From Candidatus Levyibacteriota bacterium (GTDB taxonomy: Bacteria > Patescibacteriota > Microgenomatia > Levybacterales > UBA12049): a stretch of DNA of 64,000 nt. Positions within the stretch are counted from its first letter, which is position 1. Each line of letters starts with the position of its first letter. Below the pieces are notes generated by a model. That model had not been told where the DNA came from and did no database searches. It saw only the letters and a program-made list of their open reading frames with translations. A program made the translations under genes and the position numbers. Shown one piece after another: positions 8,171 to 13,942 of the stretch. The DNA lies in NCBI GenBank assembly GCA_043807135.1, contig JAZDGF010000001.1:4573-68572 (forward strand), written 5' to 3'.

Positions 8171-8469
8171 AAAATTTCTCTTTTCAAATTGCTTTTTGAC
8201 TCCTTGCAAGCGAAGAGAAGATAATTTAAATCTACAACTTGACCATTAGTACGGGTAGGCTAAACACGTTACCATGCTTACACCGCCCGCCTATCAACCT
8301 GATAGTCTCTCAGGGGTCTTCCTTATAAATAAGATGAGATCTTATCTTGGGAACCGCTTCCCACTTAGATGCTTTCAGCGGTTATCGGTTGGGAATATAG
8401 CTACTCAGCGATGCTCCTTTATCGGAAACAGCTGACACACCAGGGATTCCCTCATCCCAGTCCTCTCGT

Positions 8470-9154
8470 CATTACGTTTTCTCAGATTTCTCTGAGGATC
8501 AGACTATATCTTCACCCAATCTAACTTGGGTGTTGGCGTATAATAAAAGGCTTAGATTTCGGTTTTTAGACCGATATACCTTCTATATGAGTCGTTACGG
8601 GGACTTTCAAAGAGATGTTCTCTGCGATGAATAATAATTATATTCTCGCATTTTCTTAATCCATTCTGAAACATTATATTTATTAATTATTTTCTGTTGC
8701 AATTTTGGAATAAGTTTTATTAATAAACTTGCTTGTTTTTGCTTAAGCCGTAAAAACGGCTTAAGAAGGGTTAAAACTTTTAATGTTTTTGTGAATCCTT
8801 CTATTCGAAGTTCACAAATATTATCATTTCTTGTATAAACATATCCTCCAAGTATTTTTTGCATCCATTCAATATCATTTTTATGACTATTATCTTGGTA
8901 GATGCAAATTACTGTTTTGATACGAATAGTTTTACCTTCTGCATTCTTGCGCAATTGAAGCATAATGCTTCCATCACCATCAAGAAAGCCAGCTATGTAT
9001 GCAAGTTTTTCTCTTTGAGAAAGTCTTCCCACGGTATTATCCTTTGGCACTTTATCTAAGTTTAACATAGGACTAAAATTAAACTCAAACCAAGAGGACT
9101 TCACCGTTATTAGCCAATTTCGATACTGTATTACTACAGTAAAGAGCAATTTCT
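8470..9154 (-). mobile_element. Group I intron with a LAGLIDADG HEG, inserted in the 23S sarcin-ricin loop (between CCUAGU and ACGAGAGGAC; E. coli ~U2656/A2657)
   Basis: The exon junction reconstructs CCCTAGT|ACGAGAGGAC. The intron contains the S-like core GAAGATATAGTCTGA and a single-motif LAGLIDADG ORF. Boundaries were placed by eye (5' exon ends in U, intron ends in G). Confidence 0.6.
8607..9068 (-). CDS. LAGLIDADG homing endonuclease (single-motif, I-CreI-like) encoded in a 23S intron
   Basis: LAYIAGFLDGDGSIMLQLRK motif. The ORF-track start at 9209 lies in rRNA exon sequence, so the start is taken at the internal Met at 9068. Confidence 0.7.
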   Translation of the reverse strand: MLNLDKVPKDNTVGRLSQREKLAYIAGFLDGDGSIMLQLRKNAEGKTIRIKTVICIYQDNSHKNDIEWMQKILGGYVYTRNDNICELRIEGFTKTLKVLTLLKPFLRLKQKQASLLIKLIPKLQQKIINKYNVSEWIKKMREYNYYSSQRTSL

Positions 9155-9215
9155 TACTAGGGACGAATTCCCTCAAATCTCGACGATTATGCAGGATAGA
9201 GACCGACAATTATGT

Positions 9216-9549
9216 TACTCAACAGAATAATTCTGTAGGGCGTATGTATTTCTACTACGCTCTCCGATTCGCATCGGAGTTCGGACTATATCTTCCCTTC
9301 GATAAACTCAGGGTCTAGTGTATAGTCTCTGGGGCTCTAAAAGATATTTTCTCTTAGTTGCCTGCTGATTGTCCGCACTTAAAACATTTTTACTTGTTAT
9401 AGAAATAAAATAACTCTAATGTCAAGTAGCTTAAGATGCTCGGAGTTTCCAGCATATAGCTAGATTTATTCCCGCTTTTATACGGGACCTTCAAATTTTC
9501 TCTTTACAGTTCAAAACGCTTGAAGGAAGACAGCAACGGTCATTTGCTT
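9216..9549 (-). mobile_element. ORF-less group I intron in 23S at the L2593-equivalent site (GACAGU|UCGGUC)
   Basis: Exons reconstruct CGTAAGACAGT|TCGGTCTCTATC. The 334-nt insert contains R-like CAGAGACTATACAC and S-like GAAGATATAGTCCGAAC core elements and no ORF of 60 aa or more. Confidence 0.6.
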
Positions 9550-10577: not shown

Positions 10578-11089
10578 TATCCCCGGGGTAGCTTTTATCC
10601 GATAAGCTGTGTGCCTACCACTAGGCATCACAGGATCACTAACACCGACTTTCGTCCCTGCTCGACTTGTAGGTCTCGCAGTCAAGCTGGCTTATGTGTT
10701 TGCACTATCACCTTGATTTCCATCCAAGGTTAGCCAACCTTTGTACGACTCCGTTACTCTTTAGGAGTCAACTTCCCCAGTTAAACTGCCCACCAGACAC
10801 TGTTCCTTAGCCGAATTTTTTTGCGGCAATAAGGTAATGATCACTTATTTCAAAGAGAGGTATTTCACTAGCGCCTAAGCTCCCTCCTATTCTAAACAAT
10901 TAAAATAAACTTTCAAATGCCAAGCTACAGTAAAGCTCCCGGGGTCTTTTTGTCCATGCATAATTAGGCCGCGTCTTCACGGCCATCTCAATTTCGCCGG
11001 GTAGATGTTCAAGACAGTTACTCAGTCGTTCTACCATTCGTGCAGGTCGGAACTTACCCGACAAGGAACTTCGCTACCATAGAACAGTT

Positions 11090-11801
11090 CACTTTTGTTA
11101 CTTGCTCTGATTGATTACAGAGTCTCATGGTCGCCCATGAGGTCGGACTATATCATCCTCACCTTTTCAGGTGGGTTTAGCGTATAGTCTCTGAGGATTC
11201 CTTATTCGAAAATATCTTTATAGCCATATTTTCTTGTTCTTCCCTTACCTTTGTTTAATTTTTCTCTTAAGATTAAAATTCTTTTTAATCCTTTAGTATT
11301 TCTGTGTTCTCCACTTTTAACAAGCTTTGAAATATCACGAAAAATATTAAAGTTGTAAATTTTACTTTTAGAGAGTAAAGGATATTTTGTAAAATATGGA
11401 ATAATTTTATCGACTATTTCTTGAGAGCTTGTAACATCCAGAGAATGCAATCCGTCTTTTCTTACTTTAATAATTCCGCATTTCAATTCTTTTTTTAAAA
11501 CGTAAAGAATTGATGAATCTTTTTGTGAAACATTAAAGCTTAAAACAACTTGCCAATTAACTTTATAATCGCTCTTTTTACGAAGCGAAACATTAAAGCT
11601 TCCTTCTCCTTCTACAAACCCTGCAATAAAATAGCCTAAATTTTCTCGATCAAGGCCTTTCCTGCTGATTGTCTGCGCTGGACGTTTTTTCACCATATCT
11701 TTATATTAACATGGTACCGCCAGATACTTCAACCGTCTGTTTTATACAGTTGCGGTACAGATTTTCCAGCATATAGCTAAATTTTACAACTACAATTGCT
11801 T
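11090..11801 (-). mobile_element. Group I intron with a LAGLIDADG HEG in 23S helix 69 at the L1917-equivalent site (GUAACUAU|AACUG)
   Basis: Exons reconstruct GTAACTAT|AACTGTTCTATGGTAGCGAAG. The 3' core is CCTCAGAGACTATACGCTAAACCC...GAGGATGATATAGTCCGACC (R/P8/S). Confidence 0.65.
11202..11696 (-). CDS. LAGLIDADG homing endonuclease (single motif LGYFIAGFVEGEGSF)
   Basis: LAGLIDADG motif near the N-terminus, inside the L1917 intron. Confidence 0.75.
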   Translation of the reverse strand: MVKKRPAQTISRKGLDRENLGYFIAGFVEGEGSFNVSLRKKSDYKVNWQVVLSFNVSQKDSSILYVLKKELKCGIIKVRKDGLHSLDVTSSQEIVDKIIPYFTKYPLLSKSKIYNFNIFRDISKLVKSGEHRNTKGLKRILILREKLNKGKGRTRKYGYKDIFE

Positions 11802-13942
11802 ATAGTTACTGCTGCCGTTTACTGGAGCTTGTATCCTAAGCTGAACATTGCTGTCTCACTAGAGATACTTGACTTACCAGCACTGGGCAGGTGTCAGCCC
11901 CTATACTTTGCCTTTCGGCTTTGCAGGGACCTATGTTTTAGATAAACAGTCGCTAAATACACTTTTGTTGAAACCGCGTTCTTACACGCGGCAAGGCATC
12001 TCCCATAGGTTACGCCTAGCTTTTTTGCCGAGTTCCTTGAACATCTTTCTCCCGATCGCCTTAGTCTACTCGACCAGCCCACCTGTGTCGGTAATCGGTA
12101 CGGTAAAATATGAGTTTTTTCCGATAAATCGGAACCAATGAGGCTTTTCTTGGAAACTGAAACGTACTATATTGTTCCCTATTGCTAGGAAACTTTCACT
12201 CGTAGTTCAATTAAACAGATTAAGGGATTTGCCACTTATTCCTACTTTACTACTTGGACCCATCTTGCGATAGGCATAGTTTTTCCAATTCCGTTACCCC
12301 CTCAGAATACTCATATTCTGTAGTCGAATTTCAACGACTTATCCATCGAGTTACCCCCCATTATTAAGGGACACCCTTAGGACCGACTAACCCTCCGCTG
12401 ACTTACATTGCGGAGGAAACCTTGGGCATTCGGCGGTCCTGTTTCTCACAGGACTCTCGCTACTCATACCGGCATTCTCACTTCTGTCCGCTCCACAACA
12501 CTTTACAGTTGTTGCTTCACCGCAAACAGAACGCTCCCCTACCAACCTTACGGTTCTCCAGCTTCGGCAAAGAACTTAATCCTCGGTGGATTTTCGGCGC
12601 CAAGTACCAATCCTCCAGTGAGCTGTTACGCTATCTTTAAAGGATGGCTGCTTCTAAGCCAACCTCCTGGTTGTCTCTGGAACCTGACTTCCTTCCAAAC
12701 TTAGTTCTTATTTAGAGGCCTTAGCTGGGAGTCTGGGCTGTTTCCCTTTTGACCCATCAGCTTAGCCCGAAGGGTCTGACTAGGATACAACAAGCTCTGG
12801 CATTCGGAGTTTGATTGGTTGCGAGAAATTACTTCCCCACGAACCATTCAGTGCTCTACCTCCAAAACTCTATACGTATCCCGCTATACCAAAATATATT
12901 TCGGGGAGAACCAGCTATCTCTGAGTTCGTTTGGCATATAGCCCCTAACCTCAAGTCATCTCATACCATTGCTACGGTAACGAGTTCGGGCCTCCTCCTA
13001 CATCTCTGTAGGACTCACCCTGCTCAAGGCTAGCTCACTCAGTTTCGGGTCTACTAACTGCAACTAACGACCAATTAGGTCACGCTTTCACTATGTCTCC
13101 GTTACGTTCCGTAACTTAGACTAACGCTGCAATCAATAACTCACCGGTTCATTCTTCAATAGGCACGCCATTATCCTTACGGACTCTGGCTGCTTGTTAG
13201 CCAACAATTTCAGGTCTATTTCATCCCCCTCCCGGGGTGCTTTTCACCTTTCCCTCACGGTACTAGTTCACTATCGGTAGACTTTGGTGTTTAGTCTTGG
13301 AACGTGGCCGCCCCAGCTTCCCACAGGGTTTTATCGTACCCCATGGTACTTAGGTACAAACTATCGGGGTCTTTCCTTTCATGTACGAGCCTTTCACTCT
13401 CTATGGGGGATTATTCCAAATCCTTCTATTAGAAAAAACCGCATCGAATATCGTCTGCCCTGCAACCCCCGAATAAATTCGGGTTTAGACTTTTCCGCTT
13501 TCGCTCGCCGCTACTTACGGAATCTCGTATGATTTCTTTTCCTGGTGTTACTAAGATGTTTCAGTTCACACCGTTCCCCACCAAACACTATATATATCAT
13601 TGCTGATATATTTTTATGTTTGGTTCTTGTAAAAACAAGGGGTTTCCCCATTCGGAAACCGCCGGATCATAGGTTTATGACACCTACCCGACGAGTATCG
13701 CCGCCATATGCGTCCTTCCTCGGCCAAAATCTCCTAGGCATCCATTATTGGCATTATGAGTAGATTTAAATTATGTTAATTCCGTTAAATTTTCCGTAAA
13801 CAAAAATGCTTTTGGAAAATCAAACGGAAATTCTTCTCCTCACTTGTCAAAGAGCCAAATCATTATCTTTTCGGGATAACCCCCTCTCACTAGGGGGCTT
13901 GCCCCAAAAGATAATCTTACTAGTTTTATTTAGCTTGACGAG

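Follow-up and report, generated by a model that had tools for sequence, protein, structure and literature searches.

What are the four insertions that break up the 23S rRNA gene on contig JAZDGF010000001.1 (assembly GCA_043807135.1, Candidatus Levyibacteriota bacterium), and how would a functional rRNA be made from it? The window, meaning the whole stretch of DNA analyzed here, comprises 64,000 nt (positions 4,573 to 68,572 of the contig). The gene occupies window positions 8226-13772 on the minus strand, and all introns, exons and open reading frames (ORFs) of the locus lie on that strand. Very probably, this 23S gene of a Levybacteria-like bacterium (Microgenomates; Candidate Phyla Radiation, CPR/Patescibacteria) carries four mobile group I introns, inserted after Escherichia coli positions 1917, 2449, 2604 and 2656. 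A preliminary description made from the letters alone had already read the locus as a 23S gene interrupted by four group I introns, of which three encode LAGLIDADG endonucleases; exon alignment, covariance-model matches, covariation and Pfam searches uphold that view.

Structure of the interrupted gene

The Rfam large subunit (LSU) rRNA match begins at 13766, and mapping against E. coli rrlH with BLAST and MAFFT yields five ordered exon blocks with breaks after E. coli 1917, 2449, 2604 and 2656. Exon 1 (11802-13772) corresponds to E. coli positions about 1-1917, exon 2 (10579-11089) to 1918-2449, exon 3 (9550-9704) to 2450-2604, exon 4 (9156-9206, 51 nt) to 2605-2656, and exon 5 (8226-8469) to 2657 through the 3′ end. 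The exons total 2932 nt and the introns 2615 nt (712 + 874 + 343 + 686). The two ends of the gene pair as helix 1 (TTAAATCTAC with GTAGATTTAA). Alignment to rrlH contains no further insertion of at least 100 nt; the largest is 32 nt, and an extra intron in exon 1, whose largest additional block has that length, was ruled out.

Intron borders were read by looking for a U just before the 5′ splice site and a G as the last intron nucleotide, as is the rule for group I introns, and all four insertions have both. Intron 1 (11090-11801, 712 nt) follows U1917 in helix 69. Intron 2 (9705-10578, 874 nt) follows U2449 at GGGGAU-AACAGG, where the hyphen marks the splice junction, as it does below. Intron 3 (9207-9549, 343 nt) lacks an ORF and follows U2604 at GACAGU-UCGGUC, and intron 4 (8470-9155, 686 nt) follows U2656 in the sarcin-ricin loop (CUAGU-ACGAGAGG). 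Removal of the introns exactly restores GUAACUAUAAC of helix 69, GGGGAUAACAGGCUGAU, GACAGUUCGGUC and AGUACGAGAGGAC.

The alignment to E. coli 23S, proposed in the preliminary description as the means of fixing the insertion sites, settled all four of them, and it moved one: the junction GACAGU-UCGGUC, first placed at 2593, is E. coli 2604. Of the borders given there, those of intron 1 were exact, those of introns 2 and 4 were one nucleotide short, and the 3′ end of intron 3 (put at 9216) was nine nucleotides off. The expectation that such a gene defeats standard rRNA callers proved correct, since the Rfam LSU_rRNA_bacteria match ends at 10541, inside intron 2, and a standard caller thus truncates the gene.

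Empty sites in related genomes

The nearest genome is a Candidatus Levybacteria metagenome-assembled genome (MAG; PFRF01000008.1, here L064; Patescibacteria, Microgenomates, Levyibacteriota), which matches the window at 81-94% identity over the stretch between tRNA-Ala and 5S rRNA. It carries introns 1 and 2 and is uninterrupted at ...GACAGT-TCGGTC... and ...CCTAGT-ACGAGAGG..., so that introns 3 and 4 are absent to the base. A second Levyibacteriota genome (JACPLG010000014.1, L065) is without introns 1 and 2 and has introns at 2604 and 2656, and a third locus (CAYMYC010000002.1, L036) lacks the first three introns and is interrupted at 2656. Because the empty sites lie at the exact junctions, all four insertions prove to be present in some relatives and missing from others, the pattern that mobile introns should leave. 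The same three comparisons identify the host as a CPR bacterium near Levybacteria.

Endonuclease-gene content varies reciprocally between L065 and the window. The nearest relative of intron 3 is the 2604 intron of L065, which bears a LAGLIDADG ORF (L065:2379-2880) where the window intron has 58 nt (9295-9353). Conversely, the 2656 intron of L065 (393 nt) is ORF-less where intron 4 of the window has an endonuclease gene.

Two further observations concern these relatives. L064 has an additional ORF-less intron of 255 nt after E. coli U1931 (L064:3851-4105, borders GGT-AACTAAC...AATAATG-AGCGAAG), which is of the same type as introns 1 and 3 and is absent from the window. The record of L036 is titled 'uncultured Gammaproteobacteria'; its 23S exons are 84-100% identical to those of the window gene and its GC content is 39%, so this organism label looks wrong, a point that also touches other 'binchicken' records.

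Group I identity of the insertions

Each intron was compared separately with the Rfam group I model (RF00028, gathering score 50 bits), because the speed filters lose group I introns on long inputs: when the whole window or 7900-14100 was given to Rfam, no group I intron was returned, and even intron 3 was missed. Intron 3 matches the full model with 58.4 bits (E 1.8e-14), above the gathering score. The cores of introns 1, 2 and 4 are interrupted by ORFs, and these introns match the P7-P9 half only, with 25.6 bits (E 2e-4), 29.5 bits (E 2e-5) and 33.1 bits (E 1e-6), respectively. An ORF-less ortholog at 2656 (L041, 304 nt) reaches 40.8 bits in a match that spans the intron exactly from end to end, and an ORF-less ortholog at 2449 (L069) scores 28 bits. 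Across introns 1, 2 and 4 and these orthologs the E-values range from 2e-4 to 4e-9. The matches below the gathering score are significant, and the general model fits the type of introns 2 and 4 poorly. The strings resembling group I R and S elements that had first drawn attention to the introns are present in them.

For introns 2 and 4 the fold was examined by covariation. An alignment of 25 ORF-trimmed introns from sites 2656 and 2449, each with 8 nt of exon on either side (two introns at site 2500, those of L004 and L066, were left out), was folded with RNAalifold, which recovers P1, P2, P3, P4, P5, P6, P8 and P9. The P3/P7 pseudoknot is present in these introns: when P7 is added as a pseudoknot, 96% of cells in the alignment are paired, vs. 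34-41% with slid partners. Compensatory change occurs in 24 of the 45 pairs, a number reached by none of 500 shuffles. P1 tracks the insertion site, with UAGU paired to GCUA at 2656 and GGAU to GUCC at 2449, and both the U.G pair and the terminal G (column G325) are invariant in all 25 introns. For the type to which introns 2 and 4 belong, covariation over these relatives supports a complete core from P1 to P9.

The four introns comprise two ribozyme types: introns 1 and 3 have a compact core, and introns 2 and 4 look IA-like, with extra hairpins apparently lying between P7 and P3′. In intron 1, P1 reads as AACUAU paired with GUAGUU, with U.G at the splice site, and P3 as UUUAGC paired with GCUAAA; there is no P2, and GNRA loops cap P8 and P9. 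Its P7-P9 region comes from the covariance model and its P3/P4 blocks are common with intron 3, with P3, P6, P8 and P9 read by hand. Intron 3 reads with a P1 of AGACAGU and GCUGUCU and a P10 of GACCG and CGGUC. In intron 2, P1 is GGGAU paired with GUCCC. Introns 2 and 4 appear to hold about 55-65 nt, folded as two to three hairpins, between the 5′ strand of P7 and P3′, a segment that aligns poorly among relatives. Intron 4 has a short P1 (AGU-AA GAAA UUGCU), in which only AGU and GCU pair on the exon side, followed by AA/UU and a GAAA loop. As read, the P1 helices of all four introns place U.G at the splice site.

Intron-encoded endonucleases

Introns 1, 2 and 4 each contain a LAGLIDADG gene in or beside the P6 loop. 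The product of intron 1 (HE1, 164 aa, 11202-11696) is a single-motif LAGLIDADG_1 protein (Pfam PF00961, 84.1 bits, 1.5e-23), that of intron 2 (HE2, 214 aa, 9796-10440) a two-motif LAGLIDADG_2 protein (PF03161, 134 bits, 6.6e-39), and that of intron 4 (HE4, about 153 aa, 8607-9068) again a single-motif LAGLIDADG_1 protein (PF00961, 34.5 bits, 4e-8). All three exceed the curated cut-offs of 23.1 and 25 bits. The HE1 ORF begins in an extension of P5 and fills the P6 loop. The HE4 ORF reads through P4′/P6; its first ATG is at 9068, and the mechanically defined frame extends to 9209, into exon 4.

Among solved structures, HE1 matches each half of I-SmaMI/I-OnuI at 1e-36 and also the single-motif enzymes 5gkk and 3e54. 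HE2 matches I-SceI at 1.5e-15 over residues 5-195, and HE4 has matches to I-MsoI (3.8e-22) and, more weakly, to I-CreI (about 1e-13 to 1e-14). The translations keep an acidic residue in each motif (FIAGFVEGEGS in HE1, LILGDAYL and WFMDDGYY in HE2, YIAGFLDGDGS in HE4). HE1 is thus predicted to resemble one half of I-OnuI, HE2 to be an I-SceI-like monomer, and HE4 to be of the I-CreI/I-MsoI type. Compared with L064, HE1 is 83% identical in amino acids (dN/dS 0.15) and HE2 89% (dN/dS 0.12), which indicates that both are maintained by purifying selection. HE4 is 58-74% identical to the ORFs of 2656 introns in L036, L010, L002 and others. Orthologs occupy introns at the same sites in other genomes, and the exact HE2 protein also occurs in two Logan assemblies, where the contigs are under 1 kb in length. 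All three small ORFs are best regarded as predicted homing endonucleases and not as host genes.

Splicing, homing and the case of intron 4

Each intron would fold within the pre-rRNA, and its internal guide sequence would pair with the last bases of the upstream exon and put a U.G wobble at the 5′ splice site, which exogenous guanosine would then attack. Docking of the terminal G would allow the exons to be ligated, restoring helix 69, the strands of the peptidyl-transferase center and the sarcin-ricin loop. Each endonuclease, in turn, is expected to cut intron-less copies of its own rDNA site, whether in incoming or in recipient DNA, so that repair copies the intron in (homing). Since the window has one rRNA locus, homing would act on DNA exchanged between cells.

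Several points weigh against the interpretation of the insertions as four functional group I introns. Splicing and ligation in vivo, like the activity and specificity of the endonucleases, are predictions. Three of the four introns fall below the Rfam gathering threshold, and so do the ORF-less orthologs; the proposal that covariance models would recognize the insertions as group I introns accordingly holds at full threshold for intron 3, with introns 1, 2 and 4 significant but below it. The assignment of introns 2 and 4 to subgroup IA is a reading of the sequence in which P7.1/P7.2 and P8 align poorly, and the putative fold of intron 1 beyond P7-P9 likewise comes from reading and from its likeness to intron 3. 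The most specific difficulty concerns intron 4. Its guide (9128-9155) reads GCUC, vs. GCUA in 16 of the 19 aligned 2656 introns, which leaves a U-C mismatch at alignment positions 5/31 and three exon pairs in P1. With three exon pairs and this guide, efficient self-splicing is not assured.

It is therefore conceivable, if unlikely, that some of the introns, most plausibly intron 4, no longer self-splice efficiently and either depend on a protein helper or are slowly decaying. The exon side of P1 in intron 4, with only AGU and GCU paired, and its covariance-model score below threshold speak for this, and some LAGLIDADG proteins, such as I-AniI, act as maturases. The U-C mismatch is common to the introns of L010 and L065. 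However, the core of intron 4 is otherwise intact, including the U.G pair and the terminal G, and P1 is short in every 2656 intron (4 + 2 bp, capped by a GNRA loop), which makes the short helix a family trait. Furthermore, the sarcin-ricin loop is essential, and an insertion left unspliced there in a single-copy gene would very likely be lethal. As a side observation, CUCUU in intron 4 could alternatively pair with GAGAG of the downstream exon.

Spread of the ribozyme families among rRNA sites

Introns 2 and 4 have near-identical blocks of 25 and 22 nt in common, together with the S element and the overall architecture. The preliminary description took such blocks, which are present as reported and are these two short segments instead of long stretches, as the mark of recent spread of one intron lineage between two rRNA sites. 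Recent copying within this genome between sites 2449 and 2656, for example by reverse splicing, would account for the resemblance, and some CPR elements have been proposed to undergo ectopic transposition (Tsurumaki et al., 2024, PMC11270868). However, the blocks are not particular to this genome. A search of the Genome Taxonomy Database (GTDB) species genomes with 25 bases from the blocks (AATAACGGTGARG N35-65 AATACCGTGGGA) gave exact matches in 72 species genomes, mostly CPR. When the flanks were mapped to E. coli rRNA, the introns fell at seven or more sites: 23S 2656 (29 introns), 1951 (16), 2449 (12), 2584 (7) and 2500 (4), and 16S 327 (2) and about 1408 (1). In structural terms, the blocks form the P3/P4 and P4′/P6 strands of a widespread ribozyme family.

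The distances between introns point the same way. In the 5′ core, intron 2 is nearest to 2449 introns elsewhere (99% in L064, then 71% and 64%) and intron 4 to 2656 introns elsewhere (67-76%), whereas the two are 55% identical to each other, which ranks 17-18 of 75. Their P2, P3 and P6 differ through compensatory changes, and these related ribozymes bear endonucleases from unrelated LAGLIDADG families, I-SceI-like and I-CreI-like. At some time the family must have moved between sites, but there is no sign that the move was recent or that it took place in this genome, and recent copying here is very unlikely.

A second pair of relatives, overlooked at first, consists of introns 1 and 3, which share TATGCTGGAAA...AATCAGCAGG. 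Other genomes have this core at 1917, 1931, 2262 and 2604. Each is nearest to a same-site intron elsewhere (80% for intron 1, 74% for intron 3), and the two are 41% identical to one another.

Two other genomes have two IA-like cores in a single 23S gene, one at 2449 and 2584 and the other at 2584 and 2656, which suggests that multiple occupancy by one ribozyme family is common. The IA-like core was also found on MAG contigs that their records label as Acidobacteriota, Anaerolineae, Clostridia, Chloroflexus and Actinomycetota, at 23S 2656 (L050, L051, L058, L060), 1951 (L009, L021, L054, L071) and 2500 (L026) and at 16S 327 (L048). The GC content of these contigs is 49-61%, vs. 39-43% for the CPR loci.

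Fragmented rRNA and assembly

The insertions might also remain unspliced, as expansion segments or as intervening sequences (IVSs) that RNase III excises without ligation, leaving a fragmented 23S rRNA. IVS-fragmented 23S rRNA is known in bacteria, and short non-intron insertions also occur in CPR genes (Tsurumaki et al., 2024, PMC11270868). However, all four insertions have group I cores and U...G borders, and their sites differ from the known IVS positions in helices 25 and 45; the 5′ part of this 23S gene holds no insertion of at least 100 nt. Breaks in helix 69, in the strands of the peptidyl-transferase center and in the sarcin-ricin loop would, moreover, disrupt essential continuous elements, which makes fragmentation extremely unlikely. 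That the mosaic is an assembly artifact joining rRNA pieces and introns of different organisms is barely credible: rRNA regions are hard to assemble from metagenomes and intron cores are repeated between sites, but L064 is collinear with the window over tRNA-Ala, the first two exons, introns 1 and 2, and 5S, the order of the other introns is the same in L065 and L036, perfect rRNA motifs result at the junctions, and the repeats between introns are at most 25 nt long.

The surrounding operon

The interrupted gene lies directly downstream of tRNA-Ala(UGC) (13942-14016, minus strand) and upstream of the 5S rRNA of the same operon (8060-8171, minus strand; RF00001, 72.7 bits). An Rfam scan found no 16S rRNA gene within the 64-kb window, and the operon consists of tRNA-Ala, 23S and 5S only. 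With protein genes directly upstream of the operon (14211-15577), the 16S gene is apparently unlinked. Elsewhere in the window there is a tRNA-Ile with the anticodon UAU (50593-50668, minus strand), which is uncommon in bacteria, where AUA is usually decoded by a lysidine-modified CAU tRNA.

Relation to known intron systems

Insertions in CPR rRNA genes were reportedly first noted by Brown et al. in 2015. A later survey found insertions in 82% of CPR 23S genes, with up to 16 per gene and with group I introns skewed toward the gene's 3′ half (Tsurumaki et al., 2024, PMC11270868). The heavy intron load described at the outset as a hallmark of CPR rRNA genes is thus documented, and the 88-94% identity of the locus to the Levybacteria MAG places the present host within the CPR. 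In the survey, LAGLIDADG_1 proteins occur at 1917, 1931, 1952, 2593, 2604 and 2657; the single-domain proteins are about 180 aa long and those of LAGLIDADG_2 about 210 aa. Endonucleases of one site group with each other, and activity was demonstrated for one enzyme, I-ShaI. Only 45% of the CPR 23S insertions match the Rfam group I model, and the sites were not reported outside the CPR (Tsurumaki et al., 2024, PMC11270868). The window resembles this picture in its several group I introns in the 3′ half, in LAGLIDADG_1 at 1917, 2604 and 2657, in LAGLIDADG_1 and LAGLIDADG_2 proteins of about these lengths, in insertions of which only some attain the Rfam group I threshold and in its patchy occupancy among related hosts; nothing essential differs, the 2604 intron of the window being ORF-less. 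Sites 1917, 2604 and 2656/2657 match sites named in the survey, whereas 2449 is not named in its main text (PMC11270868); it recurs in 12 of the genomes fetched here.

Outside the CPR, the 23S genes of Synechococcus sp. C9 and S. lividus have introns at 1917, 1931 and 2593 (Haugen et al., 2007, PMC1995217). Like intron 1, their 1917 intron is about 740 nt long, lacks P2 and encodes a single-motif LAGLIDADG protein (168-181 aa) in an ORF that overlaps the core. As in the window, several endonuclease-bearing introns share one 23S gene. A second type there has P7.1/P7.2, hairpins that introns 2 and 4 of the window appear to have as well. In contrast, the host is a cyanobacterium and there are no introns at 2449, 2604 or 2656 (PMC1995217).

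The junction of intron 2 and its protein both recall the yeast mitochondrial omega intron, since HE2 is a predicted relative of I-SceI. The I-SceI recognition site TAGGGATAACAGGGTAAT of that intron is the same LSU site as 2449. It shares GGGATAACAGG with the window junction GGGGAT-AACAGG, which indicates homologous LSU sites. The likeness is drawn from protein and site; the window host is bacterial, and HE2 has 214 aa vs. 235 in I-SceI. A literature search for I-SceI together with L2449 found no linking publication, and one for L2656, L2657, L2604 and L2605 found nothing relevant. HE4, for its part, appears to be of the same single-motif type as I-CreI and I-MsoI, and its intron, like that of Chlamydomonas, looks IA-like, with apparent hairpins between P7 and P3′. 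The I-CreI intron of the Chlamydomonas chloroplast 23S gene lies at 2593. Intron 4, in contrast, lies 63 nt downstream, in the sarcin-ricin loop at 2656, so that the target sequence would be different.

Implications

The phenomenon, most of the sites (1917, 2604 and 2657) and the protein families had been cataloged for the CPR by 2024, and the current understanding is unchanged. A combined claim would go further: that intron 4 may need its I-CreI-like protein, or the folding rRNA, to splice, and that one scaffold, present with unrelated endonucleases at no fewer than seven rRNA sites and also in MAGs labeled Chloroflexota, Actinomycetota and Acidobacteriota, would document repeated retargeting and exchange between phyla. 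We hold this to be distinctly improbable. If intron 4 did depend on such a cofactor, ribosome maturation in a reduced bacterium would depend on the protein of a selfish element.

What matters for annotation is that the 23S gene really spans 5.5 kb and that standard callers cut it short at intron 2. For the biology of these introns, the locus offers a natural example of the cycle of intron and endonuclease gain and loss, in which close relatives provide empty-site alleles for all four insertions, and in which the most conserved elements of the rRNA (helix 69, the peptidyl-transferase center and the sarcin-ricin loop) would serve as homing sites.

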